Of a stretch of DNA of 64,000 nt, positions 1 through 53,735 are shown in pieces. The notes under the pieces were generated by a model. The model made no database searches. It was not told the DNA's origin and saw only the letters and a program-made list of their open reading frames with translations. This DNA comes from Spirochaetota bacterium. Lineage in GTDB: Bacteria > Spirochaetota > B62-G9 > DRHN01. The translations under genes and the position numbers were made by a program. Numbering within the stretch: the stretch's first letter is position 1; each line of letters starts with the position of its first letter. The stretch is taken from positions 9,172-73,171 of the forward strand of contig JAFGTF010000022.1 in NCBI GenBank assembly GCA_016934265.1. Direction: 5' to 3'.

Positions 1-907
1 CGGTGATAAGAGCATGCGCCGAGAGGGGGGGGAGCGCGAAGTTGTAGACCATATGCGCTTCGTCCGTCCCGCCGCCGAAATATGAAATGTTCTCCTCATG
101 GGGCACATTGGTCTCGGTAATGATCTTCACGTGCGGCGCGGCAAGGTCGAAGATGTCCCGGAAGAGCTTGACCACCGTGTGCGTCTGGGGGAGATGGAGG
201 CAGGAGGTTTTACTCTCCTTCCAGAGGTAGGCGATGGCGTCCAGCCGTATGACCGAGACGCCGTGGGAGACGTAGAAGAGCAGGACGTCGATGATATAGA
301 GCAGTACCTCGGGGTTCTTGAAGTTCAGATCGACCTGATCGGCGCTGAACGTGGTCCATACCTTTTTTACCCCCTCTGCGGTCTCGAACTCGGTGAGGAG
401 GGGGAGCGCGCGCGGACGGAATACGCGCGAGAGATCGAAGCGCTCGTCTGGCACTATGAAAAAGCGAGAAAACCGTTCGTCTCCCCGCAGAAATCCCAAA
501 AACGGCTCGCTCTTCTTAGAGATATGGTTTATGACGGCATCGAACATCAGCTTGAAATGCTTCCCCATGTCGTCGATATCTTCCCAGTCGCCGAGATCGG
601 GGTCGACGCGCTTGTAGTCGATGACGGAGAATCCGTCATCCGAAGAGTAGGGGAAGAAGGGGAGGATATGAACCGTCGAGACGATTCCCCTAAGGTGACG
701 ATCGAGGAAGCGGAAAAGCGCTCGAAGCGGTTTTTCTCCGGATCGTAGAAAGGAGTCTCCGTACGTGATCAAAACCGAGTCCTTTTCCGTGAACCGGTAG
801 CGCTTTTTTGGGATTTTCTTTTCGTATCGGGCGATCAGGTCGGCGAGCCGTTCCGAGATCGTCTCCGCCCGCTTCTCCCCGTATAGGAGGCGAAGCTTTT
901 GAAGCAT
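1..907 (-). CDS. GH13_18 sugar phosphorylase (sucrose/glucosylglycerate phosphorylase family), partial; C-terminus runs off the window start
   Basis: Reverse-strand translation from the ATG at 907 gives 'MLQKLRLLYGEKRAE...VHILPFFPYSSDDGFSVIDYKRVDP...AVINHIS...VSVIRLDAIAYLWKE...VYNFALPP'. These are the hallmark motifs of the GH13_18 sucrose-phosphorylase-like family. An alternative in-frame ATG lies at 931. No stop is reached before position 1. The listed plus-strand ORF 98..748 is antisense to this gene. Confidence 0.75.
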   Translation of the reverse strand, partial: MLQKLRLLYGEKRAETISERLADLIARYEKKIPKKRYRFTEKDSVLITYGDSFLRSGEKPLRALFRFLDRHLRGIVSTVHILPFFPYSSDDGFSVIDYKRVDPDLGDWEDIDDMGKHFKLMFDAVINHISKKSEPFLGFLRGDERFSRFFIVPDERFDLSRVFRPRALPLLTEFETAEGVKKVWTTFSADQVDLNFKNPEVLLYIIDVLLFYVSHGVSVIRLDAIAYLWKESKTSCLHLPQTHTVVKLFRDIFDLAAPHVKIITETNVPHEENISYFGGGTDEAHMVYNFALPPLSAHALIT

Positions 908-1099
908 TTTATCCGGTAACGGACGGTTCATACGCGTATTGTACGATATTTTCCCCTTCCCGTCAACCGGGCAGGCGCCGTCTCCCGCGAGCGGGGATCT
1001 CGTCACACCGTGCGGCGCCGGGCCTGCCCCGAGGTAAAAGGCTTGCAATGAGCGGTACGCCGTGATATACATAGATATAGAAGGCGTGACAGGGGGCCT

Positions 1100-2698
1100 G
1101 TGGGTTTGATGGAGGATAAGGATATTACACAGGAGATCGGTGTCGCCGAGCTGCAGACGCAGCAGGAGCGGCCGTCCTATATCAGGGACTGGCTGCGTAA
1201 GAACACCTTCCATCACACACAGTTCGATGATGTCAGGCGGCTCGTCGCACTGAAAAAAAAACAGAAAGTAGCTGTAAGCCTCTGTTTTCCAACCCTGAAC
1301 GAGGAAAATACGGTCGGGAGGGAGATCGCCCTGATCCGGGACGAGCTTGTCGAAAGGTATCCGCTCATAGACGAAATCGCTGTGGTGGACTCCGGTTCTA
1401 CGGATTGTACAAAGCAGGTGGCGGAAGAGGCGGGCGCGGATTTCTACTATTCGGGCGACATACTCTCCAAGTACAGGTTTTACCGCGGGAAGGGGGAGAA
1501 CCTCTGGAAAAGCCTCTATGCGCTGCGGGGTGACATAATCTGCTGGCTCGACGCGGATATCAGGAACATGCATCCGAGATTCGTACTCGGGTTGGTCGGC
1601 CCGCTCCTCGAGCATCCGGAAATATCGTACGTCAAGGCTTTCTACAAGAGACCTATCCGGTCGAAAGGAGAGCTCCGACACACCGGAGGCGGGAGAGTGA
1701 CGGAGCTCGTCGTCCGTCCGTTTTTCAATCTCCTCTTCCCCGAGCTCACCGGTATCGCACAGCCGCTCTCGGGCGAGTACGCCGGCCGCCGTGAACTTTT
1801 AGAGCGGCTGCCGTTCTTCACCGGGTACGGGGTCGAGGCGGGACATCTCATCGATATTCTCAGGATCTTCGGAATCGACGCGATCGGCCAGTGTGACATC
1901 GTGGTCAGGGTTCACAGGAACCAGTCGATTGAGGCGCTCCGCTCCATGTCCTACCGGATACTTAAGATACTTCTCCAGCGCGCGGACGACATGGGACGGA
2001 TAGAGATCTTCCAGGACCTGTCGGACTCGCTGCAGGTCATTACCGGGGTCAAGCGGCTCTACTCGATGGAGAAGATGAAGGTGTGGGGTACCGAGCGGCC
2101 GCCTATTATCTCGATACCCGAATACAGGGAAAAGCACGGTATTACGGTGGATACCTCGGAGAAAAGGGACAGGGAAGCGCTGAGGCCGCTCCCGTATACC
2201 GCTTCGCTCATGTTTCACGAGGACCTCGTGATTCCGCGGCTCAAAGGGCAGACGAAAGACGAGGTGATACGAGAGCTCGTCAGGGCGGGAAAAGAGCGTA
2301 TCCTCGACCTCGCGGAGGCGGAGAAAGAGCTTTTAACTTCCGGCGATGTGATCGAAACGCCGATCGGCAAGAACATCGCGCTCTTTCACGCGTTCGGGGC
2401 GTTCGTCGACGACATCGTACCGATCATAGGGCTCTCGCCGGATGGTATTGACATGAAGTCGCTCGACAGCGCGCCCATACATATCGCCTTGATGTTCCTT
2501 GCGCCCGAATACCTCGGAGAAATCTACAACAGGATAGTCGAGTCGTTCGCAAAGGTATTCTCACGGATGGAGCACTTCGAATGGCTGCTCCGGTGCGGGA
2601 CGCCGGACGAGATTATCGCATTCTACAGCTACCTCGAGGCGAAGAATAAAATAATGAAGATGCTCAGAATCGAGGATATACAGAGCATCTGCCTGTGA
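1100..2698 (+). CDS. gpgS: glucosyl-3-phosphoglycerate synthase (GT81, GpgS-like) fused to a C-terminal PTS EIIA type-2 (PtsN/EIIA-Ntr-like) domain
   Basis: Residues ~55-350 match Mycobacterium GpgS: 'PTLNEE', 'DSGSTDCT', 'RGKGENLWKSL...WLDADI', 'GGGRVTELVVRP', 'QPLSGEYAGRRELL', 'GYGVEAGHLID', 'RVHRNQ'. Residues ~370-532 show a PTS_EIIA_2 fold with a candidate phospho-His in 'GKNIALFHAF'. Confidence 0.8.
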   Translation: MGLMEDKDITQEIGVAELQTQQERPSYIRDWLRKNTFHHTQFDDVRRLVALKKKQKVAVSLCFPTLNEENTVGREIALIRDELVERYPLIDEIAVVDSGSTDCTKQVAEEAGADFYYSGDILSKYRFYRGKGENLWKSLYALRGDIICWLDADIRNMHPRFVLGLVGPLLEHPEISYVKAFYKRPIRSKGELRHTGGGRVTELVVRPFFNLLFPELTGIAQPLSGEYAGRRELLERLPFFTGYGVEAGHLIDILRIFGIDAIGQCDIVVRVHRNQSIEALRSMSYRILKILLQRADDMGRIEIFQDLSDSLQVITGVKRLYSMEKMKVWGTERPPIISIPEYREKHGITVDTSEKRDREALRPLPYTASLMFHEDLVIPRLKGQTKDEVIRELVRAGKERILDLAEAEKELLTSGDVIETPIGKNIALFHAFGAFVDDIVPIIGLSPDGIDMKSLDSAPIHIALMFLAPEYLGEIYNRIVESFAKVFSRMEHFEWLLRCGTPDEIIAFYSYLEAKNKIMKMLRIEDIQSICL

Positions 2699-2883: not shown

Positions 2884-3066
2884 TCATTCTTCCTGGAACT
2901 CGAGCGCCATCTCAAGCTCCTCTTCGGTTATCGCACCCATTCCGATCAGTATCTCGCCGAGACGCTGGCTCGACGACTTCTGTATCTCGATCGCCTCGGT
3001 GAGATCGTCTATCGTGATCATTCCCGATTCCATGAGGACCTGACCGATCGGTTTTTTTTCGGGCAT
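2884..3066 (-). CDS. standalone MshEN-like (T2SSE_N-type) small protein, 60 aa, with tandem c-di-GMP-binding-type motifs
   Basis: ATG at 3064-3066 sits behind an AAAGGAGAAAG RBS. Two 24-aa motifs separated by a 5-aa spacer: 'PIGQVLMESGMITIDDLTEAIEIQ' - KSSSQ - 'RLGEILIGMGAITEEELEMALEFQ'. This fits the MshEN consensus RLGxx(LVI)(LVI)xxG(LVIF)(LVI)xxxxLxxxLxxQ. It is the last gene of the DUF39 / NIL-ferredoxin operon. Confidence 0.5.
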   Translation of the reverse strand: MPEKKPIGQVLMESGMITIDDLTEAIEIQKSSSQRLGEILIGMGAITEEELEMALEFQEE

Positions 3067-3125
3067 CAGCTTTCTCCTTTCTGACTGTCGGGGCCACTCT
3101 ATAAACCGGCGGTAAACCTGGAAGC

Positions 3126-3545
3126 CTACTCGATCATCTCCATCGCCATATACGGACAGGACGGTATACAGAGGCCGCAGCCGATACACTTCTCCTCGAC
3201 GAATTCGACCTCCATTCGCTCGCGGTCGGAGATGCTCAATGCCGCGGTAGGACACACGACCGTACACGCGCTGCAGTGGGTGCACCGTTCGTCGATACGC
3301 CTGATGATCTTGGAAACCGGCTTGAAAGATATGCCGAGCTCCCTGAGATAGTCCAAGCCGGCGTCGATGTTCTTTTTTTTACCGGATATTTCGATCACGA
3401 GCGTCCCCTCCTCGTCCTGGTCGATACGCGCCCGTGTAATATTCACCGTGATATCGTACTCCCGGATGAGGTTCGATATGATCGGCTTGTCTGCGAGCTT
3501 CCTCGGGTAATGGAGCATGATGTTGCGTGTCGGGTTCTGTGTCAT
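3126..3545 (-). CDS. NIL-domain 4Fe-4S ferredoxin (COG2122 family; homocysteine biosynthesis partner of DUF39)
   Basis: N-terminal NIL domain, then two CxxCxxCxxxCP clusters ('CTHCSACTVVCP', 'CIGCGLCIPSCP'). The start overlaps the stop of the upstream DUF39 gene (ATGA). Confidence 0.8.
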   Translation of the reverse strand: MTQNPTRNIMLHYPRKLADKPIISNLIREYDITVNITRARIDQDEEGTLVIEISGKKKNIDAGLDYLRELGISFKPVSKIIRRIDERCTHCSACTVVCPTAALSISDRERMEVEFVEEKCIGCGLCIPSCPYMAMEMIE

Positions 3546-4753
3546 GACTCATCACCTCCTTCGGGCCTGATAACGAGCGGCTTGAAGGTCTGTCCGGACT
3601 CGGGGCCCGGTATCGATTCGACCTTCTCGCTCAGCAGGAAACCGCCCTGCTGTATCCATGACTTCAGCGTCACTGCGATCTCTTTCGCTAAGGGGTAGCT
3701 CGAAAGCGAGCCGGTGGGCACCTTCTTCCCCCTGATGGTGACGGTCCCGCTTTTGAGATCACGGTAGCTCACCTTCGTGATGGTACCCGGTTCCCGTTTC
3801 GGATATGTGGTGGCGTAGTCGACTACCGGAGCGAGGATATCGGCGTCCGATACGCTCACGAATCCCGCGATCTCCTCGTCTAAAACCGGGATGGGAATCC
3901 CGATCCCCACGGCGAGGCTCACCCCGTATCCGAGCATCGATACGCCGCGTATGAAGCGCGTGTTCATCTGTTTCATGTCGCCTATCACGCAGATCGTGCC
4001 CGCGCCCTCGGTGGGAACGCCGTTTTTCCCGCGTTCCGCGGTAGGATTATGCTGGGTACCCTCCCAGCTGACGCGGCCCGTGCCCCCGCCGAGGAAAATC
4101 TTCGTCCCGATGCCGATCGTGCGGTAGTATGGATCGTTCAGCAGGGGACTGAGCTGCCCGGCAGAGCAGTAGTTTGCGTTGCCGATATGCGGCTGGAGTA
4201 TTCCGAGGTAGGTGTAGATGACCTTGGGAGAGGTGTTCACCGCGACGTTGTAGTTCTGGTATCCGTTTCTCGGGTTTAGCAAAAACGCCTGATTCAGGTC
4301 CTTGATATTGACATAGGTGTCGAGTTTTTTTCTCGGGTAGCAGTCCGTACCGTAGGATGTCGCCCGCAGGAACACGTCCCTGCCTGCGATGAGGTCCTCG
4401 ATTACATGCCCTCCCCCGTACCTGAACCTCCCCGGGTGTATCTTGTTCGCCGGATCGTCGTCGGGAATCTCCGTGGCGCCTATATAGACATCACAGGCGG
4501 CGATGCCTCCGTAGGCGAATACATCGTTGAGCCACGCTTTCTGTATTTTCATGCGGGGCGACGGGTGTCCGAAGTTGAGAAACGCGCCGGACGAGCACAT
4601 GGGGCCGAACGTACCGGTGGTTACCACATCGACCTGTTCCGAGGCCTTCTTCAGGCCGTTTTCATTGACATAACCCACTATCTCCTCTGCGGTGAAGATG
4701 CAGGCCTTCTTCTTTTTGATCCGTTCGTTTATTTCCTGTATAGTCTTTGCCAT
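3542..4753 (-). CDS. DUF39 / COG1900 homocysteine biosynthesis protein (L-aspartate-semialdehyde sulfurtransferase family)
   Basis: About 400-aa protein beginning 'MAKTIQEINERIKKKKACIFTAEE...' with conserved 'GGGHVIEDLIAG' and 'GTKIFLGGGTG' blocks. Start chosen at the ATG at 4753 behind an AAAGGAG RBS. It is paired with the NIL-ferredoxin as in the MA1821/MA1822 system. Confidence 0.8.
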   Translation of the reverse strand: MAKTIQEINERIKKKKACIFTAEEIVGYVNENGLKKASEQVDVVTTGTFGPMCSSGAFLNFGHPSPRMKIQKAWLNDVFAYGGIAACDVYIGATEIPDDDPANKIHPGRFRYGGGHVIEDLIAGRDVFLRATSYGTDCYPRKKLDTYVNIKDLNQAFLLNPRNGYQNYNVAVNTSPKVIYTYLGILQPHIGNANYCSAGQLSPLLNDPYYRTIGIGTKIFLGGGTGRVSWEGTQHNPTAERGKNGVPTEGAGTICVIGDMKQMNTRFIRGVSMLGYGVSLAVGIGIPIPVLDEEIAGFVSVSDADILAPVVDYATTYPKREPGTITKVSYRDLKSGTVTIRGKKVPTGSLSSYPLAKEIAVTLKSWIQQGGFLLSEKVESIPGPESGQTFKPLVIRPEGGDES

Positions 4754-4860
4754 AAGACGCTCCTTTTGTTGTTTGTAGTTTGTCGGCAAAAACTATCCAT
4801 GCCCCATAACATCGGTCCTCACCCCCTTGTGATACGAAAGTATTAACGTTGCAAAGAGCG

Positions 4861-5343: not shown

Positions 5344-5471
5344 ATCCCACCTCCGGCGTCCGGTGCGTAAGTATCTGTAATAGTAGTATAGGTCGCTCCT
5401 TTTGCAAACAGATTTTTATACCTTCCAGCCTGTAAATAGTATTACTATGTACGAAAAAGGCGAGGGGGCGT

Positions 5472-6548
5472 ATGATCGCGGTGACGGGAGGAGGAACGGG
5501 AGGGCATATTTTTCCCGTCTTCGCGCTCATAGAAGAGCTTTCACGCCGCGGGCATCGTGATATTGTCTGGATCGGTTCCAAGGCCGGAATTGAACGGGGC
5601 TGGGCCGAAAAGGCGGGTGTTCGCTACCGCGGAATTGCGACCGGAAAGCTCAGGCGATATTTTTCCCTGCGAAATCTCACCGATCCCTTCAAGGTGGTAA
5701 TCGGTCTGCTCGAGTCGTTTTTCTTTTTCCTCGGGAAGAGACCTCAGGTCCTCTTCTCGAAGGGGGGTTTTGTGTCGGTACCTCCCGTGCTCGCCGCTCG
5801 GCTCCTCGGGATTCCGGTAGTCACCCACGAGAGTGACACCGTACCCGGACTCGCCACGAGGATCATCTCGCGCGGCGCATCGGCGATCTGTGTCGGGTTT
5901 TCGCACACACGTGACGCATTCGAGGGAAAAAACGTCGTATGGACGGGGAATCCGGTTAGATCCGATGTACTGGACGGCGACGGCGACAGGGGCAGATCGT
6001 TTTTGGGGTTTTGGGACGATCTTCCGATGGTGTTCGTCGTCGGAGGGAGCCTCGGGGCCCGGATCCTGAATGAAACGGTCTGGGCGCTGTGCGGCGAAAC
6101 AAACGGTTTCAATATCGTCCATCAGTGCGGCAGAGGCAACAAAAAAACGGGTATGGATGAAAACCGGCACTATCGCCAGATCGAGTTCTTAGAGGACCGG
6201 ATGGGAGACGTCCTCGATGCGGCAACGGTCGTGGTATCGCGTGCGGGGGCGGGGGCGTTGTACGAAATAGCAAGCCTCGGCAAGGCGTCGATCCTGATCC
6301 CGCTTCCGCTGTCCGCGAGCAGGGGCGAGCAGATCGAAAACGCGCGCTATTTCGAGGCGCACGGCGCCTCGGTAGTCATCGCGAACGAGAATCTTACCCC
6401 CCATGCGCTCGAGGAGGCGATTCAGTCCCTGCTCGCGGACGGGCCACGGCTCGAGACGATGGGGAGGGAGGCGAAAAAGCTCGTTCGTAAAGACGCCGCT
6501 TCCGCGATTGCAAAGATCCTGGAAGGGTATCTAAAGCGGAAACAGTAG
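5472..6548 (+). CDS. murG: undecaprenyldiphospho-muramoylpentapeptide beta-N-acetylglucosaminyltransferase MurG
   Basis: 'MIAVTGGGTGGHIFPVFALIEEL' G-loop, 'VTHESDTVPGLATR', C-terminal 'GGSLGAR...RAGAGALYE...LIPLP' donor-binding motifs. GAGGGGG RBS. Confidence 0.85.
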   Translation: MIAVTGGGTGGHIFPVFALIEELSRRGHRDIVWIGSKAGIERGWAEKAGVRYRGIATGKLRRYFSLRNLTDPFKVVIGLLESFFFFLGKRPQVLFSKGGFVSVPPVLAARLLGIPVVTHESDTVPGLATRIISRGASAICVGFSHTRDAFEGKNVVWTGNPVRSDVLDGDGDRGRSFLGFWDDLPMVFVVGGSLGARILNETVWALCGETNGFNIVHQCGRGNKKTGMDENRHYRQIEFLEDRMGDVLDAATVVVSRAGAGALYEIASLGKASILIPLPLSASRGEQIENARYFEAHGASVVIANENLTPHALEEAIQSLLADGPRLETMGREAKKLVRKDAASAIAKILEGYLKRKQ

Positions 6549-6606
6549 CCGTAGTAAAAGAAATTGTAGTATATTTTGATCGAAATTTACTTAATAGGGG
6601 GAACCA

Positions 6607-7656
6607 ATGACCGATGTGAAAAAACTCCTCGGAGATGAAGCGAAGAGTCTTCTGGAATATAAATGCACTACCGTGCCGAAAGAGAACCTTCACCTCCCCG
6701 GACCGGATTTCATCGACAGGGTGGTGTCTTGTACTGACAGGCCGGTTCCCGTGATGCGGAACATGCAGACCGTATTCGATCACGGCCGTCTCGGGCAGAC
6801 CGGATATCTCTCGATACTTCCCGTCGACCAGGGCATCGAGCACTCCGCAGGAGCCTCGTTTGCACCGAACCCGATCTACTTCGATCCGGAAAACATTGTG
6901 AAGCTTGCAATCGAGGGGGGATGCAACGCGGTCGCCTCGACGCTCGGCGTGCTCGGGGCGGTCTCCAGGAAGTACGCGCATAAGATTCCGTTTATCATCA
7001 AGATAAACCATAACGAATTTCTCACCTATCCGAACAAGTTCGACCAGATACTCTTTGCCAGCGTGGACCAGGCGTTCAACCTCGGGGCTGTTGCGGTGGG
7101 TGCGACGGTCTACTACGGCTCGGATGAAGCGGGCAGGCAGATCCAGGAAATAACCGAGGCGTTCGAGTATGCTCACAGCCTCGGCATGTTCACCGTGCTC
7201 TGGGCGTATCTCAGAAACCCCGCCTTCAAGACGAAGGAAAAGGATTACCACCTTTCCTCAGACCTCTCGGGCCAAGCGAACCATCTCGGCGTGACGATCG
7301 AGGCTGATATCATCAAGCAGAAGCAGGCGGTATGCAACGGCGGCTACAATGCCCTGAAGTTTGGTAAGACCCATGAAAAGGTATACTCGGAGCTTACAAG
7401 CGACCACCCCATAGATCTCACGCGGTATCAGGTGGTAAACTGCTACATGGGGAGATCGGGGATGATCAACTCAGGCGGCGCGTCCGGCAAGGACGATTTC
7501 GCGCAGGCGGTGCGAACCGCGGTCATCAACAAGCGTGCGGGCGGCATGGGACTCATCTCCGGAAGGAAAGCCTTCCAGCGTCCGATGAAGGAAGGCGCCG
7601 GGCTGCTCAACATGATACAGGACGTGTACCTGGATAAAAGCATCACCGTCGCATGA
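6607..7656 (+). CDS. fbaB: class I fructose-bisphosphate aldolase (FbaB/DhnA type)
   Basis: Collinear with E. coli FbaB over essentially its full length: '[48 protein letters not shown]...[11 protein letters not shown]...VLWAYLRN...[15 protein letters not shown]...[15 protein letters not shown]...[12 protein letters not shown]'. Confidence 0.9.
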
Positions 7657-7678
7657 CGATATTCACGGAAACGGAATA

Positions 7679-7707
7679 AGAGGGGGAAAAATCCCCCTCT
7701 TTTTTTA
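7679..7707 (+). terminator. rho-independent terminator downstream of fbaB
   Basis: Stem 'AGAGGGGG' (7679-7686), loop 'AAAAAT', complementary 'CCCCCTCT' (7693-7700), then TTTTTTT (7701-7707). Confidence 0.7.
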
Positions 7708-7794
7708 CCCCAACCGGCGTTTTTTCCTCGACAGGCTTCGACTTCACTATTAACCAGTTATTTTTTTCGTTAACACACTTGTAACAGAGTGGTG

Positions 7795-8226
7795 TTATAT
7801 GCACAGTAACAAGTATGAGGAGGAATGACGGGCAGAAGACGATTGGTGAGTGGCTTCTTTGCGATTTTCATATTCATACGACGATGAGCGACGGAATCTC
7901 GCCGTGCAGGAGGTGAGAAGTATCGTCTCGGAAAAAAGCAGGGGACGAAAGTCGTATTTACCGGAGATACGCGCCGGATCGATTAGATGGGGTTTGTCAT
8001 TATTTAAAGAATAGGCCCTCGCATCTAAATGCGGTTGACACTCTTCAAAGGACAAGTTCTCCCCATTACGTCCTACCCCGATTCTAGAAGCAACGGGCTG
8101 ACCTTCCTCATCGACAATATGAAGGGACAGCCGCTGTATACGCATATCACGATGGAAAAAGGAGTACGGTCGAAACTCGCCGAGCTCGCATCCGATCTGC
8201 TGTAACAGGCCCGCACCAACGGTCAT
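7795..8226 (-). CDS. hypothetical protein; reality doubtful
   Basis: 143-aa ORF whose ATG overlaps the rimI-like stop (ATGA). Only the first ~60 aa look protein-like; the C-terminus is low-complexity and antisense to a PHP-like fragment on the plus strand. No recognisable family. Confidence 0.2.
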   Translation of the reverse strand: MTVGAGLLQQIGCELGEFRPYSFFHRDMRIQRLSLHIVDEEGQPVASRIGVGRNGENLSFEECQPHLDARAYSLNNDKPHLIDPARISGKYDFRPLLFSETILLTSCTARFRRSSSYEYENRKEATHQSSSARHSSSYLLLCI

Positions 8227-8696
8227 CGGATCAACGCCGGGAGCCGTTTTCCCATTACGATCGCGTCCTCTTTTTCCTGCGCGTAGTAGTTCTCAATGAG
8301 GCCGATTACAAAAAAGCCGCTTCGCTGGTAGAACCTGATGGCCTTTGCGTTCGAGGGCCTGACCTCGAGGTAGCAGTATCCCGCGTTTCTCCGCTTCGCA
8401 TTGTTGAAGAGGTGTTCGATCAGGAGGGTGCCGAGCCCCTTATGCTGGAACGAAGGACTTATCGCGATGTTTATGAGATGGATGATCCCGTCTAGGGAGG
8501 CCGTTACCGGCAGGAAAGAGGGTTGTTTTTTCAACAGGTGGTAGCCGCCGTACCCAAGAAGCGTCGTCTTTTTTCTCAGGGTGACGACCCAGTTGTTGTG
8601 GTCTTTTAGGATCAGCCTGAAGAACTCTTCGCTCCATGGATGCCGGAAGACCCCCTGCTCTATCGAGACGACCTCTTTGAGGTCTTTTTCCTCCAT
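8223..8696 (-). CDS. rimI: GNAT family N-acetyltransferase (RimI-like ribosomal-protein-alanine acetyltransferase)
   Basis: 'MEEKDLKEVVSIEQGVFRHPW...' and acetyl-CoA motif 'QHKGLGTLLIEHLFNNAKRRNAGYCYLEVRPSNAKAIRFYQRSGF'. Start taken at the ATG at 8696. Confidence 0.7.
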   Translation of the reverse strand: MEEKDLKEVVSIEQGVFRHPWSEEFFRLILKDHNNWVVTLRKKTTLLGYGGYHLLKKQPSFLPVTASLDGIIHLINIAISPSFQHKGLGTLLIEHLFNNAKRRNAGYCYLEVRPSNAKAIRFYQRSGFFVIGLIENYYAQEKEDAIVMGKRLPALIR

Positions 8697-8781
8697 TCTT
8701 GCGTAGGAGTAATCCGTCTGCATCGCTGCTTTTCACCCTCCTGAAGGAAAGGGCGTACAGCCGGCGGTCACGATACCGGTA

Positions 8782-9420
8782 TTACCGTTTGAAGTACCCG
8801 TCGAGCTTGTCGAGCTCTTCTGAGTTTACGATATCGAGGACATTTCCGTCCTTGGCGAGAAACCCGGACGAGATGAGCCTGCCGAGCTGCGTTTCTACCT
8901 CGTCTTCGGGAGCGTTTGTCTGCATCGATATATTCCTGACGGTTTCCGAGTAGTTCAATGAGCTGCTGGCCTCCCATTCGCCGGGGGACTTCGTCGCGCG
9001 ACGCAGATCGTTGAGGGCGCTTATCACGAGAGACTTGACGTCCCGCTTTGCGAGGTCCCGGATCTGGTTGTCGGCCTTTTCGAGGCGGAGGCAGAGTTTC
9101 TCGATTATATTCATTGCGATACTGGAGTTCTTGCTGATCATGCTGACGAAACCGTTCCTGTTGAAGGACAGAAGCTCGCAGTTGTCTATCGCGGTGGCGG
9201 TGGCCGTTCTCGGTGTCTGGCGGATGAGCGCCATTTCACCCAGGAAGTCACCTTTTCCCAGGACCATGAGTATCTTTTCGACGTTATTGACCCGCTTGGT
9301 AATCTTAATACGGCCCTTCTGGATAATGTACATCGTATCGCCGGGATCGCCCTCTTTGAAAAGGTCTCTTCCGGCCTCGAGTATCTGCCCGTATTTCTGA
9401 AAGAGAGAACTCTTTTCCAT
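8782..9420 (-). CDS. cyclic nucleotide-binding domain protein (Crp/cNMP-binding family)
   Basis: cNMP-binding beta-barrel motifs 'FKEGDPGDTMYIIQKGRIKITK...GKGDFLGEMALI...RTATATA'. Start at the ATG at 9420 behind a GAGGTAA RBS. Confidence 0.65.
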   Translation of the reverse strand: MEKSSLFQKYGQILEAGRDLFKEGDPGDTMYIIQKGRIKITKRVNNVEKILMVLGKGDFLGEMALIRQTPRTATATAIDNCELLSFNRNGFVSMISKNSSIAMNIIEKLCLRLEKADNQIRDLAKRDVKSLVISALNDLRRATKSPGEWEASSSLNYSETVRNISMQTNAPEDEVETQLGRLISSGFLAKDGNVLDIVNSEELDKLDGYFKR

Positions 9421-19349: not shown

Positions 19350-20108
19350 TCAGAACATCGAGGTCAATTCTCTCAAACTCGTTATTATACGGGCCCTGTC
19401 TCTAAAGCCGTCGCCTGCCGGGTTCGGGCCGGGGCCTGTATCGATACTGTAATCCAGGGCGCGGTGATCCGTACCGTTTCTTTCTCTCATGATTACTACC
19501 GGCTTCATGGAAGCGGCAAGGGCGCCGGTAACGTCTTCCTCCGTGTCCCCGACATACGCCACTTCTCTGCCGTTGAGACCTGTTCCCTTGAGCGCTTTGG
19601 AAAATATCGCAGGATCCGGTTTCCTGTATCCGACCTCTGCAGAGACGATGACATTTTTGAACAGGTTGCCGAGCCCATATTCGGAGAGAATCCTGTACAC
19701 ATGGGGAGGGTGGTCGAAATTGCTTATCAGGCACAGGACTTTTCGCGGCTTTAGTGAACGGAGCACAGGGGCTGCTTCCTCGTCTATGCTGACATGCTTC
19801 TGCCAGGCGCACACGACTGTGTCCGCCATGACGCCGATATGCGCCGGTTTCAACTCGACGCCCAGCTCGATACCGAGCGTTTTGATCCGGCGCTCGAAAA
19901 CGGTGAGTCCGTCCTGAAAAGATACGGGTTCCTCCTTACCGAAAAACCGGTCGCAGCGTCGGGAAAATGCATCTATGGAAATGGAAAGGCCTTGTTTTTG
20001 CATGCAGTCATAGAATGTTTCGAGCCAGTCGATCCATGCGGCCTGCATATCTCCGTAGACGAGTAGGGTGCCGTAAAGGTCGAAAAAAATTCCCCGAATG
20101 CTCATCAC
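19350..20108 (-). CDS. HAD superfamily hydrolase (subfamily IA)
   Basis: Motif I 'GIFFDLYGTLL', motif II 'CLISN', motif III/IV 'KPDPAIF...VGDTEEDVTGA'. Confidence 0.7.
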   Translation of the reverse strand: MMSIRGIFFDLYGTLLVYGDMQAAWIDWLETFYDCMQKQGLSISIDAFSRRCDRFFGKEEPVSFQDGLTVFERRIKTLGIELGVELKPAHIGVMADTVVCAWQKHVSIDEEAAPVLRSLKPRKVLCLISNFDHPPHVYRILSEYGLGNLFKNVIVSAEVGYRKPDPAIFSKALKGTGLNGREVAYVGDTEEDVTGALAASMKPVVIMRERNGTDHRALDYSIDTGPGPNPAGDGFRDRARIITSLRELTSMF

Positions 20109-20231: not shown

Positions 20232-21116
20232 TCAGCGGCCGCACAGTTCCCTGAAATTGCAGTTTCTGCATATTTCTGTGTTGTCCGTCATAACAAAAAA
20301 CTTTTTCTCTTTTGGATTATTTTCCTCCACGTCAGCGCAGTATTCGTACATTTCGGCTGTCTCGCGTTTTATCGAGGTAAAAAACGCCTGAATGTCGTGA
20401 TCGTCGAACTCGTACTCCTTCTCCTCGTATTCGGGTTTGAGATACGCGATAATCGGGTTTATTTTTTCAGGTTCGATATTGAAATGATATGAAGCCCAGG
20501 AGGTATATCCAAGAAGTTGTTTTTTGTATTTTTCTTCATGCGGCTTGCCGGTCTTCCAGTCGATGATGTAGGTCCGCTTCTCAACCGGAAAAAGAAAGTC
20601 CACCTTAAAGTAAGCCTTCAGACCGTTTATCCTCGATTCGCCGTATCCGGGCGGATCCAGAATCCAATCCTTCTTCGTCGCTATAGCGCTGCCCCTCAAC
20701 CAGGTCATTCGGTCGCTGTTCAGGAAATTGGCAAGACAGAGCGTCACATCGGCCTCTATCCCGGAAATATCTGTTTGGGGAACGTCTTTATAATATACCT
20801 CTCTGAAGACGTTGGTTTTACAGTACCTCTTTAGATTTCTGATGGTATACTCAAAGAACTTTTTCCTGTTGATCGCCCCTTCATCCTTCAGGAGTCTTCC
20901 GATAAGGGTTTTGATCACCTCATGGGTGATTTCCCCCACCGCCAAAGGGACAGAAACCATCGCTTTGAGGGAATTGATCCTTTCAACGGGGTATTGGTTG
21001 TCGTGTTTTGCATAATACGTGTAGTAGTACCGGCGTTTGCAGATCTGAAACAGGTCATACCTTGAAATGGACCACCCGAGTATGGGGGTATACTCGAACT
21101 TTTTTATCCGGTACAT
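20232..21116 (-). CDS. Cas4-like PD-(D/E)XK nuclease with a C-x2-C-x5-C iron-sulfur motif, in a low-GC islet
   Basis: RecB-nuclease motif 'YIIDWKTGK', 'EYE', C-terminal 'CRNCNFRELC'. Local GC is roughly 40-45 %, against ~60 % in the flanks. Confidence 0.7.
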   Translation of the reverse strand: MYRIKKFEYTPILGWSISRYDLFQICKRRYYYTYYAKHDNQYPVERINSLKAMVSVPLAVGEITHEVIKTLIGRLLKDEGAINRKKFFEYTIRNLKRYCKTNVFREVYYKDVPQTDISGIEADVTLCLANFLNSDRMTWLRGSAIATKKDWILDPPGYGESRINGLKAYFKVDFLFPVEKRTYIIDWKTGKPHEEKYKKQLLGYTSWASYHFNIEPEKINPIIAYLKPEYEEKEYEFDDHDIQAFFTSIKRETAEMYEYCADVEENNPKEKKFFVMTDNTEICRNCNFRELCGR

Positions 21117-21359
21117 GGCAATGATCCATTATGACATGAATTCGAAGCGATGTCTTCTTTTTTCCGGCTGATGTCGCGCGATGTATACGGGAGTGCATAC
21201 TTTGTCTTTATCGTGAAAAATATTACATGTCAACGCCCGGCATCGTAGACCCCCAGACTGCGGTGGATTTTACAGAAAATAAATGATAGAATAGAAACAA
21301 TAATCGAACCGGTGTATCGAGAAAGACCGGTTTCATGGAAGCGCTCGAGGAGCGGGATC

Positions 21360-41167: not shown

Positions 41168-42067
41168 TTACGTCTTCTTTGCAAGCGCACGCTGCTTCTC
41201 GTAGGCGAAGAGCTCGTCGCGCTTCAGCGGTCCCTCTTCTATCTCGACGCCGAGTTTTTCAGAAAAGGCGGACAGAACACAGGCTTTGAACTCCTCCTTG
41301 CCGGGCCTTTTCCCTGTCACCTCCTCGACGGACGTGATCGGCTCGAGCACCTTGTCCTTCACCTCGGGAGGAACCCATATTACCTTGAAGAAGTCGTCGG
41401 TGACGAGCGGCCCGAGGAAGCAGAGGACGTTCACGACCTCGAGGCCCTCGACCTCCGAAATGACGCAGGTGGCGATCTTCTTTCCGCCGACGCGCACGGA
41501 GCCGCGGTGCTTGTACCAGGCGTCCTTCACGCCGAAGCACGCGAGAGCCTTCAGGATTACCTCCCCGATCCGCCTGTACGCAGTGTCCGAATCGCTGAAG
41601 AAACCCTTTTGGTGCACCATCTGCAGAGAAACGGTGGATTCCGGATGGACGAACACGAGCGTCCGCTCGCCCGTGAGGATGATATGCTCGAGCGTCGGCA
41701 CGTCGGGCTTGATCTCGTTCAAGAGCGGCGCGAAGTTGGTGAGCGCAATAATCGCCTTCGCGCCTGAGTCGTTCAGTATGTGTATAACCTCACGGCCCTT
41801 GTACATCGTATTGAAGGGAACGGCGACGGCGCCGAGCTTCTGGAGCGCGTAGAAGGAGTACACGAACTCCGGGATATTCGGCAGCATGATGGCCACCCTG
41901 TCCCCTTTCTTCACGCCCAAGCCCAGCAGCCCGTTCGCGAGCTTGTTCACCGATTCGTTGAGCTGCGCGAAGGTGATCGTTTTTCCCTCGAATACGAGGG
42001 CTGCCTTCTTCTTGTATATCTTCGCCCTGTCCTCGATGGTCTCGCCGAGGCTTTTTCTTTCGATCAC
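41168..42067 (-). CDS. chimeric ORF: N-terminal ~134 aa of an AMP-dependent acyl-CoA synthetase fused in frame to the C-terminal ~165 aa of a lipoate-protein-ligase (BPL_LplA_LipB) family protein
   Basis: GTG at 42067 behind an AGGAG RBS. Residues 1-134 carry the AMP-binding N-terminal block 'GDRVAIMLPNIPEF...DSGAKAIIA...HIILTG'. Residues ~137-299 carry LplA-like 'AYRRIGEVILKALACFGVKDAW...GSVRVGGKKIATCVISE'. See findings. Confidence 0.5.
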   Translation of the reverse strand: MIERKSLGETIEDRAKIYKKKAALVFEGKTITFAQLNESVNKLANGLLGLGVKKGDRVAIMLPNIPEFVYSFYALQKLGAVAVPFNTMYKGREVIHILNDSGAKAIIALTNFAPLLNEIKPDVPTLEHIILTGERTLVFVHPESTVSLQMVHQKGFFSDSDTAYRRIGEVILKALACFGVKDAWYKHRGSVRVGGKKIATCVISEVEGLEVVNVLCFLGPLVTDDFFKVIWVPPEVKDKVLEPITSVEEVTGKRPGKEEFKACVLSAFSEKLGVEIEEGPLKRDELFAYEKQRALAKKT

Positions 42068-42077
42068 CGGTTTCTCC

Positions 42078-43487
42078 TCACTTTCCGTTTTTTTCCAGAA
42101 GCCGTTCGTCCTTGTACCCGTCTCGAAGCTCCTTCTTGAGCACTTTCCCCGTTGCCGACTTCGGGAGTGATTCCCGGAACTCGACGAACTTCGGCAGCTT
42201 GTATGGAGAGAGATGCTCCCTGCAGAACTCGACGATCTCCTTCGGGTCCGCGGTCTCGCTTTCCTCGAGCACGATGAAAGCCTTCACAGTCTCGCGCCCG
42301 CTCTTGTCCGGCACGCCGATGACGGCGGCGTCATGAACCTTCGGGTGGGTGAACAGCACCTCCTCGACCTCGCGGGGGGAGATATTGAACCCGCCCCTGA
42401 TGATGATGTCCTTCTTCCTGTCAGTGATGAAGATATACCCTTCTTCGTCTTTGTACCCCATATCGCCGGTATGAAACCAGCCGTTCTTCATCGCCTCCGC
42501 GGTCTCCTCCGGGTTGTTGTAGTACCCCTTGCTTATCATGGCCCCCTTTATCACGATCTCGCCGGTTTCGTTCGGCCCCAGCTCGACGTCGTTCTCGTCG
42601 AATATCTTTATCTCGATCTGCAGCGGAGGCTTGCCGATGGAACCCGGCCTGTACCCCTCGCCGGTGGTATTGAGACAGACGGCGGAGGTGGTCTCGGTAA
42701 GGCCGTATCCCTCGGAGAGCTGGGTCTGGAATACCTCTTCGAACTCCCTGATCGTGGTGAGCGGAAGGGGCGCTCCGCCGGAGATGCAGCTCCGCAGTGA
42801 TTTCGGGATCGATGTCTTCCTCGACTTCGAGATCTGCAGAAGGTGTATGTACATCGACGGTATCGCGATGAGCACCGTCGCCTGTACCTCGGCCATGTTC
42901 TTCAGAAGCTCGGTGGGGCTGTACTGGGGGATCAGGCTCAGGGTGCAGCCGAAATAGACCGCGGGGGTCAAAACATTCGCCATCGCGTACACGTGGTACA
43001 AAGGCAGCACGCCCACGATCCGGTCCTCCGGGTAGAGGGGGAAAATCACCTCGACCAATTCGAACTCACCGAGGAAGTTTTCGTGCGTGAGCATGACGCC
43101 CTTGGGGCTGCCCGTCGTGCCTGAAGTGTAGAGCAGAAGCGCGGTATCGGAAAGGTCCACCTCCTCGGCTGAGAACTTGCTCGACGATTTGATCATAAGC
43201 TCCTTGAGCGAGACGGTATCCGTCTGCTTCGCGCCGCCCCGTCCGCTCCGTGGATAGGAAGCGACGTCGATGTCGTGATCCTTCGCCGACTGCTTGTCCA
43301 CCCGCACGTCCGCACCCGCGAGGATACCTTTTTTATTAACGCCCTGCACGACCACGGTATCCGGTATCTTCTCCCGCGAGAGAAGGTACTTGCCCGCGAG
43401 CCTTCCCTCCACGAGAGCCGACGGGTACGCCAGTATGTCCGCGGCGTCGCCCTCGGGGTTGTAGATGAGTCTCCATTTGTCCGCCAT
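42078..43487 (-). CDS. chimeric ORF: N-terminal ~88 aa of a lipoate-protein-ligase family protein fused in frame to the core and C-terminal domain of an AMP-dependent acyl-CoA synthetase (FadD-like)
   Basis: Residues 1-88 'MADKWRLIYNPEGDAADILAYPSALVEG...KYLL...PDTVVVQG...DIDVASYPRSGRGGA' track the LplA/LplJ N-terminus through the RRxSGGGAV region. The remainder is a canonical ANL enzyme: 'YTSGTTGSPKGVMLTHEN', 'GYGLTET', 'GWFHTGD', 'SATGKV'. Confidence 0.55.
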   Translation of the reverse strand: MADKWRLIYNPEGDAADILAYPSALVEGRLAGKYLLSREKIPDTVVVQGVNKKGILAGADVRVDKQSAKDHDIDVASYPRSGRGGAKQTDTVSLKELMIKSSSKFSAEEVDLSDTALLLYTSGTTGSPKGVMLTHENFLGEFELVEVIFPLYPEDRIVGVLPLYHVYAMANVLTPAVYFGCTLSLIPQYSPTELLKNMAEVQATVLIAIPSMYIHLLQISKSRKTSIPKSLRSCISGGAPLPLTTIREFEEVFQTQLSEGYGLTETTSAVCLNTTGEGYRPGSIGKPPLQIEIKIFDENDVELGPNETGEIVIKGAMISKGYYNNPEETAEAMKNGWFHTGDMGYKDEEGYIFITDRKKDIIIRGGFNISPREVEEVLFTHPKVHDAAVIGVPDKSGRETVKAFIVLEESETADPKEIVEFCREHLSPYKLPKFVEFRESLPKSATGKVLKKELRDGYKDERLLEKNGK

Positions 43488-48200: not shown

Positions 48201-49222
48201 AGAAGCTTAGGGTCGACAAGATCGCCTCCGTGACCGTCAACCTCGGTCTTTCGAAGACTGTGGAGGTCTCTGACAGAATCAGCGCCAGGCAGGGTGCGGT
48301 CTGCGTTGTCAGGGCGCTCGAGGAGAAGCGGGTCTACGACAAGCTGGAGCTGTCATCCGGGCGCATGGCAAAGATATCGAGGGGCGACATAATCGTCGGC
48401 GCCCTCGGTAAAAGGCGCGCGCTCATGGGATTCTGCGGCGTCGTTCCCGAGTCCGTGAAGACCGGCGATACGCTCAACATCCTCAATATAGGGGGTGTGA
48501 TCGGAAAGGCCACGAGCTACAACCGGGACTACGGGCTCCCGCTCAAGGTGGAAGTGCTCGGTGCGGCCTGCAGGGAGGGGACGCCTCTCAATATAGCGGA
48601 CCACGCAAGGCCCGTCGCCTCCACGCTGCGATCGTCGATGCCGATCGTCGTCGTCTCGGGAACGTCAATGAACAGCGGCAAGACGGTAGCCGCATCGAAG
48701 ATCGTCCAGGAGCTCACCTGGAAAGGGTATACGGTCGCAGCGGCAAAGGTGTCCGGAGTGTCCGCGTTGAAGGATACTCTCAACATGATGGACCATGGTG
48801 CGGTAGAGGCGCTCTCGTTTCTCGATTTCGGCTACCCCTCCACGGTCGGATCGGAGGATGTGCCCCGTATTACGAAGGGCGCGCTCAACGCCCTCTCGGA
48901 GTCGGATCCGGATGTCTGTGTGGTAGAGCTCGGGGACGGCATTCTGGGGGACTACGGGGTGAAAACGTTCTTTTCCGACCGGGAGATCGCTTCCGCGATC
49001 TCTTGCAACATCGTGTGCGCGATCGATCCGGTGGGGGCGTGGGGGATAACCGAGATCCTGCGAAAGGAGGGGATCGGTGTGGACCTCGTCTCCGGTCCCA
49101 TAACGGACAACACCGTGGGCATAGATTTTATACGGAACAACCTGGGCTGTACGGGCATCAACGCGGTGGACGGGAAGAAGCTCGGCGACTTCGTTCAGCG
49201 CCGTATAGGTGAAAAGTCATGA
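48191..49222 (+). CDS. DUF1611-like P-loop (BioD/CobQ-fold) protein of unknown function embedded in the arginine cluster
   Basis: ATG at 48191 overlaps the argG end. Rossmann-like N-domain, then P-loop 'VVVSGTSMNSGKTVAASKIV'. The 3' end overlaps the argC start. The family assignment is tentative. Confidence 0.4.
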   Translation: MALKKLRVDKIASVTVNLGLSKTVEVSDRISARQGAVCVVRALEEKRVYDKLELSSGRMAKISRGDIIVGALGKRRALMGFCGVVPESVKTGDTLNILNIGGVIGKATSYNRDYGLPLKVEVLGAACREGTPLNIADHARPVASTLRSSMPIVVVSGTSMNSGKTVAASKIVQELTWKGYTVAAAKVSGVSALKDTLNMMDHGAVEALSFLDFGYPSTVGSEDVPRITKGALNALSESDPDVCVVELGDGILGDYGVKTFFSDREIASAISCNIVCAIDPVGAWGITEILRKEGIGVDLVSGPITDNTVGIDFIRNNLGCTGINAVDGKKLGDFVQRRIGEKS

Positions 49223-50271
49223 TCTTCAAGAGCAAAAAACGGATCAGCGTCGGTATTATCGGCGGCGCGGGATACGGGGGCTCCGAGCTCCTCAGGATTC
49301 TTCTCTTTCACCCGAAGGTGCAGCTTTTATTCGTCACTTCCAGACAGCACGCGGGGAAAAAGGTCGCGTCCGTAAACCGGTTCCTCACCGGGGTCACCGA
49401 CCTCGTGTTCACGGAGCCCGACATCGACGGCATTCCGCAGGACACCGACCTCGTGTTCTTCGCGACGCCGCACGGCGTGTCCATGACCATGATGAAGGCG
49501 CTCGTAAACAGGGTGCCGAAGGCTCGGGTGGTGGACCTGAGCGGGGATTTCCGCCTGAAGAACGCGAACGTATACAGGCAGTACTACGGAAAGGAACACG
49601 GGGCCGCGGAGCTTTTAGAGCGGTTTTTCTACGGCCTTCCGGAGTTTTGCCGGGACTCGGTGAAGAATGCGCAGTATGTCGCGAATCCCGGATGCTTCGC
49701 CACCGGGATCATCTTTGCGCTGTACCCCCTCTTTTTAGCCGATGCGGTCGGCAGGGCCGTACACGTCGTATCGGTAACCGGGTCTTCCGGATCGGGTGAG
49801 TCGCCGAAAGCGGTGACGCATCATCCGTACAGGGCGAAAAACTTCAAGTCTTATAAAATACTGGAGCATCAGCACCTGCCGGAGATTCAGCAGTTCTTCC
49901 GGTCCCAGTTTCCCGGCCGGGATACGGAGATAGGGATCGTGCCGCAGTCCGGCCCCTTCGTCAGAGGGATATACACCACCTCGTCGGTATACGGCGTTTC
50001 CGCGTCGTCAGACGACGTACGGGCGGCGTTCGAATCGTCGTACGAAAACGAGCGGTTCGTCAGGATCGTGGATGAATCCCCGGAGGTAACGACGGTTTGC
50101 GGGACGAACCACGTGGAGGTCGCCTTTGTCTGCAAGAACGACTGGATCGTGAGCATGAGCGCGATAGACAACCTCGTCCGAGGCGCGAGCGGTCAGGCCG
50201 TGCAGAATATGAACCTCATGTTCGGATTCGACGAAGACGAGGGCCTCCTGTTTCCCGGCATGAGACCGTAA
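49219..50271 (+). CDS. argC: N-acetyl-gamma-glutamyl-phosphate reductase
   Basis: 'ISVGIIGGAGYGGSELLRIL', catalytic Cys in 'ANPGCFATG', C-terminal 'NLVRGASGQAVQNMNLMFG'. Confidence 0.9.
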   Translation: MIFKSKKRISVGIIGGAGYGGSELLRILLFHPKVQLLFVTSRQHAGKKVASVNRFLTGVTDLVFTEPDIDGIPQDTDLVFFATPHGVSMTMMKALVNRVPKARVVDLSGDFRLKNANVYRQYYGKEHGAAELLERFFYGLPEFCRDSVKNAQYVANPGCFATGIIFALYPLFLADAVGRAVHVVSVTGSSGSGESPKAVTHHPYRAKNFKSYKILEHQHLPEIQQFFRSQFPGRDTEIGIVPQSGPFVRGIYTTSSVYGVSASSDDVRAAFESSYENERFVRIVDESPEVTTVCGTNHVEVAFVCKNDWIVSMSAIDNLVRGASGQAVQNMNLMFGFDEDEGLLFPGMRP

Positions 50272-50312
50272 CCGCGGCGCCGTTCGTACCACTACTAAAG
50301 AGGATACAAAAG

Positions 50313-51485: not shown

Positions 51486-51524
51486 GGAGGCGCTGAGGGC
51501 TATTTACTACGAAGGGGTGGCATT

Positions 51525-52526: not shown

Positions 52527-52688
52527 TGATGAGAAACTCGTTCGCCGGCCTAAAAGGAGGCGGAGGAGGAAAAAAAGCAATCATCGTGCGGTCCGAACAA
52601 ACCGCGGATAAGAAAACAAACGCGGGACCGGCCCGGGTAGAACAATAGGCGGGATTTGCTCGGGTAGAACAATAGGCGGGAGTATATT

Positions 52689-53606: not shown

Positions 53607-53735
53607 ATTACGCGGCTTCGGCCCGTAACGCAATAACCGTCCGATACGTATCCGGAGGATCGAAATCTCGGATTTCAGCCCCCGGAATACGTACTGCACG
53701 GGGTCATTGAATTCTGGAAATGGAGGAGTGGAAGA

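Follow-up and report, generated by a model that had tools for sequence, protein, structure and literature searches.

The control of glucosylglycerate levels during nitrogen and osmotic stress is recognised as an unsolved problem (PMC5381378). A 64,000-nucleotide stretch of contig JAFGTF010000022.1 from a Spirochaetota bacterium, referred to here as the window, bears on this problem. It encodes a protein in which glucosyl-3-phosphoglycerate synthase (GpgS), the first enzyme in making the stress-protectant sugar glucosylglycerate, is joined to a C-terminal enzyme IIA domain of the phosphotransferase system (PTS), and the gene lies divergent from a glycoside hydrolase family 13 gene. A preliminary description of this sequence had proposed that the fusion places glucosylglycerate synthesis under direct, phosphorylation-dependent control by the nitrogen PTS. 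Both domains were already known, as was the association of GpgS with glucosylglycerate phosphorylase (GGaP). What does the appended domain do? Herein, our analysis reveals that the clade of the window has lost most of the canonical EIIA active site that a sister clade retains, and that the remodelled domain may act as a regulatory module of another kind.

The reading frame claimed for the fusion is present as described (Table 1), and both domain assignments held in the profile searches with NF010496 and PF00359. Residues 29–340 matched NF010496, the NCBIfam equivalog model of GpgS, with 371.4 bits (cutoff 262, E=2.9e-111). A phmmer search of the Protein Data Bank (PDB) returned the mannosyl-3-phosphoglycerate synthase (MpgS) of R. 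xylanophilus (3f1y) with 231 bits and mycobacterial GpgS with about 200 bits. Foldseek TM scores, normalised to the target, were 0.85–0.92 to GpgS of M. tuberculosis and M. hassiacum and to R. xylanophilus MpgS. The motifs DSGSTD, GGGRVTELV and QPLSGEYA noted earlier were all found, with most of their residues unchanged in all 113 homologues. Aligned to 3f1y, the residues invariant in these 113 fusions include D151 and D153 (DxD), R199-V-T201-E, Q221-PLSGEY with E226, and R270, H272, N274 and Q275 (RxHRNQ). Because the catalytic-motif residues are invariant, the window GpgS is very probably active. Mycobacterial GpgS (Rv1208 and the M. hassiacum enzyme; PDB 4Y6N, 7P5L) and the R. xylanophilus enzyme (3F1Y) share its fold, 36–42% identity and the DxD, GGGRVTE, QPLSGEY and RxHRNQ motifs. 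These GT81 enzymes, however, stand alone at about 325–390 amino acids without a regulatory domain, whereas the window protein carries an additional linker and a 160-residue EIIA-fold domain.

Glucose is favoured over mannose as the transferred sugar, judging from the equivalog score and the GGaP neighbour. It is improbable that the catalytic domain yields mannosyl-3-phosphoglycerate, or this compound together with glucosyl-3-phosphoglycerate, and that the system makes mannosylglycerate or mannosylglucosylglycerate. The top PDB match in sequence and fold is indeed deposited as MpgS (3f1y, 3o3p), ahead of the mycobacterial enzymes by the bit scores given above, and an MGS-type glycosyltransferase gene adjoins the fusion in two sister-clade loci. 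Nevertheless, the GpgS equivalog cutoff was exceeded by more than 100 bits, models of mannosyl-3-phosphoglycerate synthase scored just 12–17 bits, and the conserved neighbouring gene would encode a glucosylglycerate-specific phosphorylase.

The C-terminal domain, residues 371–508, matched PF00359 (PTS_EIIA_2) with 51.6 bits (cutoff 27, E=1.3e-13) over model positions 2–140 of 144. Used as a single sequence it found no match in the PDB, and a profile was required. Built from 18 fusion C-termini, this profile matched, in order, N. meningitidis 2a0j (2e-21), E. coli PtsN 1a6j (1e-20), Burkholderia PtsN 4gqx/3urr and EIIA-Mtl. A separate AlphaFold2 (AF2) model of residues 300–532 served for the fold search, where IIA-Ntr 2a0j was the top match (TM 0.81), together with 1a6j, 4gqx, 3urr and 1a3a. 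Judged from these profiles and the predicted structure, the label EIIA(Ntr)-type is correct for fold and family. The cytoplasmic regulatory domains of SLC4 proteins also match this fold, and these are not known to depend on PTS phosphorylation.

The AF2 model of the whole fusion, made with 113 homologues, had a mean pLDDT of 83.8 and a pTM of 0.80, the latter suggesting a fixed arrangement of the two domains. Residues 1–22 are disordered in this model. The linker is poorly conserved (16% identity between the two clades defined below) and has a pLDDT of about 68–77. A predicted helix, residues 502–521, extends into the C-terminal tail, whose motif is strongly conserved in the alignment of the window's clade. 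At the end of the GpgS domain, R333, P334 and Y342 are invariant in the 113 fusions, and the same 'RPPI..Y' terminus is found in a fusion of GpgS with a HAD domain (P0154).

PtsN/EIIA(Ntr) (1A6J, 2A0J) is the closest profile and fold match, and the window domain retains the position of its phosphorylated histidine. Like PtsN, for which no downstream phospho-acceptor is known (PMC13104625), the window domain would be a terminal regulator. PtsN is free-standing, whereas the window domain is covalently joined to its presumed target. Free EIIA(Ntr) binds and regulates GlmS, a sugar-metabolism enzyme (PMC5024086). The histidine context had been described as PtsN-like, and this did not hold. His430 does align with the phospho-His of PtsN, but the Arg, Glu and Pro of the signature R-E...G-x-G-I-A-I-P-H are S414, G415 and F429 in the window. 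By position, S414, G415, F429 and Y476 stand at PtsN R57, E58, P72 and H120. Compared with PtsN, the second active-site His is Tyr in the fusions, and the window clade in addition lacks the Arg, Glu and Pro and does not keep the His universally.

Among the best 120 homologue clusters at 90% identity, both Pfam domains were found in 114, from Spirochaetota, Calditrichota and Eisenbacteria. The 114 full-length fusions were divided into clade A, that of the window, and its sister, clade B. Clade A comprises 49 clusters of 527–547 amino acids with 65–93% identity to the window protein, and homologues in this identity range have the same length and architecture. The closest database relative is 93% identical; the window's own protein is absent from the collection. 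Clade B comprises 65 clusters of about 505 amino acids with 39–48% identity. Its members, such as Salinispira pacifica WP_455381906.1 (a cultured organism), Eiseniibacteriota UCF79554.1 and Calditrichota NOX36830.1, share the two-domain architecture and the 'ERPP...Y' end of the GpgS domain. Unlike the window clade, they have a canonical EIIA site and a shorter N-terminus, the 25-residue N-terminal extension being missing, and no GGaP neighbour in any of 8/8 loci. The species distribution of clade B was taken from database names.

The active sites of the two clades differ sharply. Clade B has the Arg equivalent to PtsN R57 in 64/65 clusters and the Glu, Pro and His in 65/65 each, and the conservation of its EIIA domain centres on exactly these four residues. 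Clade A retains the Arg in 1/49, the Glu in 1/49 and the Pro in 0/49, with Phe or Tyr in place of the latter, and the His in 45/49. In the four remaining clusters the His is replaced by Asn (P0012, P0022) or Ser (P0014, P0024). These variants are full length, and the nine catalytic-domain residues checked are all intact, which argues that the EIIA domain is kept even without a phosphorylatable His. The neighbouring residues I422, F432, G433, F435 and D437 are each conserved at 100% in clade A, more than the His itself. A basic residue was gained at position 424 (K/R in 46/49). Conservation of K424 and of 'HAFGxFVDD', which is fixed in clade A, is confined to that clade. Tyr at the position of PtsN His120 is common to 112/114 fusions. 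Mean identity inside clade A is 65% for the EIIA domain and 80% for GpgS; the EIIA domains of the two clades are 23% identical to one another. At this level of identity, the EIIA domain of clade A is being maintained by selection. From these alignments, the clade B domain looks like a genuine terminal phospho-acceptor, and that of clade A looks like a remodelled regulatory module, possibly phosphorylation-independent. The split into a canonical and a remodelled clade is a new observation.

We infer from this pattern that the EIIA domain regulates GpgS, with a direction and a role for phosphorylation that would run as follows. An active GT81 GpgS would bear a C-terminal regulatory domain of EIIA(Ntr) fold, in a fusion old enough to be common to the window clade and the shorter sister clade of Spirochaetia, Calditrichota and Eisenbacteria. 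In the sister clade, an HPr/NPr relay would most likely switch GpgS through its state of phosphorylation. In the window clade, the domain has been remodelled into a non-canonical 'pseudo-EIIA' that remains under strong purifying selection and forms part of a confidently modelled two-domain protein, and it would gate or stabilise GpgS inside the same polypeptide. Gating would act mainly through a new conserved surface, made of K/R424, HAFGxFVDD and the C-terminal helix, and not through canonical His phosphorylation; phosphorylation of His430 would contribute no more than an auxiliary or altered signal. We give about even weight for and against the central proposition, that the window domain descends from a genuinely PTS-regulated ancestor and is now a non-canonical regulatory module that works mainly without phosphorylation.

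Could the domain instead be a structural relic without regulatory function, kept for the folding, solubility or oligomerisation of GpgS? In its favour, the window clade has lost the canonical active-site residues, some of its members do without the His, and stand-alone GpgS of about 320–345 amino acids is common and functional. We nonetheless find this explanation hard to credit. The domain keeps 65% identity across 49 clusters and is lost in no full-length clade member among the best 120 clusters. Moreover, many of its clade-specific residues are invariant, and these are concentrated in the C-terminal helix and near what was once the active site, a pattern not expected of a decaying appendage.

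A more serious contender, though still a doubtful one, is the earlier model in full: His430 would be phosphorylated by EI-Ntr via NPr, switching GpgS and coupling glucosylglycerate synthesis to nitrogen/carbon status. The domain is indeed Ntr-type by profile and fold, its His430 is aligned with PtsN His73 and kept in most clusters, and K/R424 might offset the missing Arg. In several bacteria glucosylglycerate builds up under nitrogen deprivation, and its regulation has been called elusive (PMC5381378). PTS(Ntr) homologues occur in Spirochaetales (PMC13104625), and T. denticola is described as operating a permease-less PTS relay (Gonzalez et al. 2005, as cited in PMC2937029). At a Caldithrix-like clade B locus (L022), a gene for a soluble PTS EIIB of the mannose/sorbose family ('DDRLIHGQV', 7663–8154, + strand) lies 1.8 kb upstream of the fusion; no EIIC or EIID was found among the called genes of that contig.

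Against this model, the Arg, Glu and Pro found in 98–100% of the sister clade and in the three PtsN chains aligned are missing from the window clade. The second active-site His is Tyr476, a loss that the fusions share, and the protein stays intact in the four natural clusters where Asn or Ser replaces the His. The partners of such a relay were also sought. No PTS genes were found in the window, either by Pfam scans of predicted open reading frames (ORFs) or by tblastn with E. coli HPr, NPr, PtsN and EI. For HprK, the window scans gave no matching Pfam domain, and no separate probe was made. Scanning species-representative genomes with a profile specific to the clade A C-terminus gave 16 loci, 15 from metagenome-assembled genomes of uncultured Spirochaetota/Spirochaetes and 1 from an uncultured bacterium; among them, CP070841.1 is a complete 3.5-Mb chromosome. 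EI, HPr/NPr and PtsN were not detected in these 16 related loci. A sigma-54 promoter of gpgS, which would have tied the gene to nitrogen, was considered and rejected. The motif GG-N10-GC/TTGCA at about 1034–1050 occurs only in the window and one orthologue (L003) among 16 upstream regions, those of the window and 15 orthologues, and this lack of conservation also counts against the nitrogen-PTS switch.

The sister clade has a canonical EIIA site, and there a PTS phospho-switch is, on its sequences, the most likely mechanism; in the window clade the Arg, Glu and Pro are lost and the His is absent from 4/49 clusters. A nitrogen-PTS phospho-switch is plausible for the sister clade and weaker for the window clade.

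Several points weigh against a phosphorylation-independent module of ancient, PTS-regulated origin. Of the window-clade clusters, 92% still have His430, and the lost Arg could be replaced by the gained K/R424, which would leave a working phospho-site. The roles of Arg57, His120 and Pro72 in phosphotransfer are presumed here from the structural literature on EIIA(Ntr) and EIIA(Mtl). The window clade is narrow, so some of its clade-specific conservation may reflect short divergence time. A neighbour-joining tree built on the GpgS domain made all EIIA fusions strictly monophyletic in only 4/75 bootstraps. In the same tree, clade A was monophyletic in 75/75, and the nearest GpgS domains outside it were those of nine clade B fusions. 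A single old fusion, with later losses or swaps, would fit this tree.

The divergent gene had been described as a GH13_18 phosphorylase. This holds, and the gene can be named more precisely as that of glucosylglycerate phosphorylase. The fragment in the window matched the Pfam Alpha-amylase model with 77 bits; truncation of the protein left its closest NCBIfam model, sucrose phosphorylase TIGR03852, under the cutoff. Over 295 amino acids the fragment is 50% identical to YcjM, the biochemically characterised GGaP of E. coli (E=5e-103), and it contains, in 'KIITETNVPH', the TETN motif that distinguishes GGaP within GH13_18 (PMC7178133). TETN was present in 11/11 full-length orthologues (555–560 amino acids), which are 44–48% identical to YcjM over about 550 residues. 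All 11 also have the loop A Glu as 'YELN' ('YEIN' in YcjM); loop A of the window protein lies beyond the edge. Taken together, the YcjM identity of the fragment, the TETN motif, the loop A Glu of the orthologues and their full-length identity to YcjM identify the product, at the level of sequence, as GGaP. The window neighbour shares YcjM identity and TETN with known GGaPs (E. coli YcjM and those of Meiothermus silvanus and Spirochaeta thermophila), although, compared with them, it is known from its first 302 codons only and its activity is predicted.

The genomic association of GpgS and GGaP was the clue by which GGaP was discovered (PMC7178133). Pairing of synthesis with phosphorolysis, as proposed earlier, was found in the window clade and not beyond it: the GGaP gene is divergent from the fusion in 12/15 assessable window-clade loci, being missing upstream of gpgS in L002, L009 and L016, but no GGaP gene adjoins the fusion in any of 8/8 clade B neighbourhoods. 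A GH13 gene near one clade B fusion (L024) was considered as GGaP and rejected; it is amylosucrase-like, with 25% identity and no TETN. In the proposed mechanism, GGaP would form the degradative branch (glucosylglycerate + Pi -> Glc-1-P + glycerate), and braking GpgS post-translationally would keep the two enzymes from running a futile cycle.

Upstream of its Met at 907, the GGaP frame stays open to 1681 on the reverse strand (window 1–1681), opposite gpgS. Since homologues align from residue 1–4, translation probably does begin at 907, the longer open frame being incidental. In the intergenic region, a sigma-70-like site at 966..938 on the reverse strand (TTGACG-17-TACAAT, 10/12) could serve the GGaP gene; such sites occur near chance (2 found vs 1.2 expected).

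Table 1. Features of the GpgS-EIIA locus, numbered from the first nucleotide of the window
Feature	Position	Strand	Basis or detail
GH13_18 glucosylglycerate phosphorylase (GGaP), predicted; N-terminal 302 codons, runs past window edge	1..907	-	homology, TETN
Divergent intergenic region, 192 bp	908..1099	.	between GGaP and GpgS-EIIA genes
GpgS-EIIA fusion gene, complete	1100..2698	+	532 aa; GTG start, alternative ATG at 1109
GT81 glucosyl-3-phosphoglycerate synthase domain, aa 29-340	1184..2119	+	NF010496 match
Linker, aa 341-370	2120..2209	+	after 'ERPP' (aa 332-335); Y342 = end of GpgS domain
PTS EIIA type-2 (Ntr-type) fold domain, aa 371-508, active site remodelled	2210..2623	+	PF00359, profile, fold
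His430 codon (CAC), equivalent of phosphorylated His73 in E. coli PtsN	2387..2389	+	profile alignment
C-terminal helical tail, aa 509-532, and stop codon	2624..2698	+	clade-conserved 'YLEAKNKIxKML'

The clade A region is broadly syntenic, with genes for HcyBio/NIL-ferredoxin, an adenosine-specific kinase, MurG and a DeoC/LacD-family aldolase. Among clade B loci, L023 has an MGS-type glycosyltransferase and a glycerate kinase (DUF4147/MOFRL) upstream of the fusion and an MscS-type channel downstream (5382–9060, 20414–21344), which suggests a (mannosyl)glucosylglycerate locus. On an Eiseniibacteriota chromosome (L017), an MGS-like glycosyltransferase gene follows the fusion, and in two Spirochaetia loci an overlapping SDR-family gene lies upstream of it. 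An NTP_transferase (sugar-1-phosphate nucleotidyltransferase) gene was seen near the fusion of L022. The absence of a GpgP phosphatase beside the fusion, reported earlier, was confirmed and extended to the whole window: with the MpgP-type HAD domain of P0154 as query, no match was found in the window or in 25 loci. The sole HAD protein in the window (19350–20108) was rejected as GpgP, being generic and 17 kb away.

The preliminary description knew of no earlier account of the fusion, and we likewise found no description of a GpgS-EIIA architecture in the open-access full-text literature, searched for GpgS with EIIA and for glucosylglycerate with phosphotransferase system. A 2026 review of PTS(Ntr) mentions neither fusions nor glycosyltransferases nor compatible solutes. 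The novelty of the fusion has to be qualified, however. Being common and already annotated as a standard architecture had been named in the preliminary description as grounds for refutation, and these apply in part: the fusion is common in databases, yet it is not the standard architecture of GpgS, for which stand-alone and universal stress protein (USP) forms are far commoner. Where full-length copies are named, they are nearly all called 'glucosyl-3-phosphoglycerate synthase' (MBN2322479.1 is an example from the fusion set, as are the three clade B accessions above), with occasional PTS-IIA-type names from JGI, and one truncated copy is annotated 'PTS sugar transporter subunit IIA'. EIIA-type domains joined to non-transport proteins are known generally, for example in PRD regulators. 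The GpgS-EIIA architecture itself appears abundant, mis- or under-annotated, and undescribed.

An exhaustive search of 1.84 billion representatives at 50% identity gave 602 matches at E<=1e-30. The best 150 of these were examined, and 123 had a near-complete GpgS domain. An N-terminal extension of at least 200 amino acids was present in 47/123; the 4/4 tested (P0123, P0125, P0129, P0142, with about 280–300 or more N-terminal residues) contained USP domains, in tandem in 3. USP-GpgS is the commonest multi-domain form of GpgS among close relatives. A literature search for glucosylglycerate and universal stress protein returned nothing relevant by title or abstract. GpgS stood alone in 45/123, and 10/123 had other C-terminal extensions (HAD phosphatase, cpYpsA/SLOG, MGS-type glycosyltransferase). 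EIIA occurred among the best 150 of the 602 only in P0122, P0124 and the window-clade representative P0005.

Individual architectures included GT4 + GpgS + GH13 (P0138, 1383 amino acids), GpgS + cpYpsA (SLOG) (P0147), GpgS + Hydrolase_3 HAD (P0154), which is likely a bifunctional GpgS/GpgP, and GpgS + MGS-type glycosyltransferase (P0121). All these fusions combine the same catalytic domain (about 45–54% identical) with a sensor or pathway-partner domain. They differ from the EIIA fusion in the domain appended, and the USP form in placing it at the N-terminus and in being far commoner (47/123 vs a handful for EIIA, at the level of 50% clusters). The repeated fusion of GpgS to small sensor domains (USP, cpYpsA/SLOG) argues for post-translational control of GpgS as a general theme. 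This wider set of sensor-domain fusions is a new observation.

Other genes in the window were also noted. Convergent with gpgS on the reverse strand, an ORF at 2884..3285 encodes, at 2884–3066, about 60 residues with two tandem 24-residue repeats ('...RLGEILIGMGAITEEELEMALEFQ'); the C-terminal part of its product is conserved in 10 related loci. The repeats resemble the c-di-GMP-binding MshEN/T2SSE_N motif, but Pfam gave no significant match and the assignment was rejected. The stretch 3126–4789 (reverse strand) encodes a homocysteine biosynthesis enzyme (PF01837 HcyBio/DUF39, 500 bits) and then a NIL-ferredoxin protein, both present in 8/16 related loci. This route to homocysteine is known chiefly from methanogens, and here it occurs in a Spirochaetota lineage. 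At 41171–43487 (reverse strand), two AMP-binding-family ORFs adjoin. The upstream one covers profile positions 151–384 and a C-terminal domain, and the downstream one covers positions 2–124 followed by a lipoate-protein-ligase-like catalytic domain; this odd pair might be a rearrangement or frameshift. An ordinary arginine cluster occupies 49219–55139 (forward strand), with an argC-like semialdehyde dehydrogenase, an argD-like class-III aminotransferase, ornithine carbamoyltransferase, an argB-like amino-acid kinase and argininosuccinate lyase.

In its widest and tentative form, which we put forward as a possibility, the fusions may be a 'Rosetta stone' indicating that the regulatory PTS (HPr/NPr -> EIIA-Ntr) directly controls synthesis of a compatible solute, glucosylglycerate, at the level of the enzyme. 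The sister clade would use a phospho-His switch, the window clade would capture a transition in which the attached EIIA gave up phosphotransfer chemistry to become a phosphorylation-independent allosteric module, and GpgS would be a hub to which different phyla have wired one or another sensor domain (EIIA, USP, SLOG). Present annotation, as plain 'GpgS' or, for fragments, 'PTS sugar transporter subunit IIA', masks the fusion architecture. Covalent attachment of an EIIA(Ntr)-type domain to GpgS provides a concrete and testable mechanism for the control of glucosylglycerate levels, from which one would predict that GT81 enzymes elsewhere might be regulated by free PtsN. If true, the few direct targets of EIIA(Ntr) would come to include a biosynthetic glycosyltransferase. 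The canonical and remodelled clades, side by side, constitute a natural experiment in how a phosphotransfer domain becomes a pseudo-enzyme regulator.

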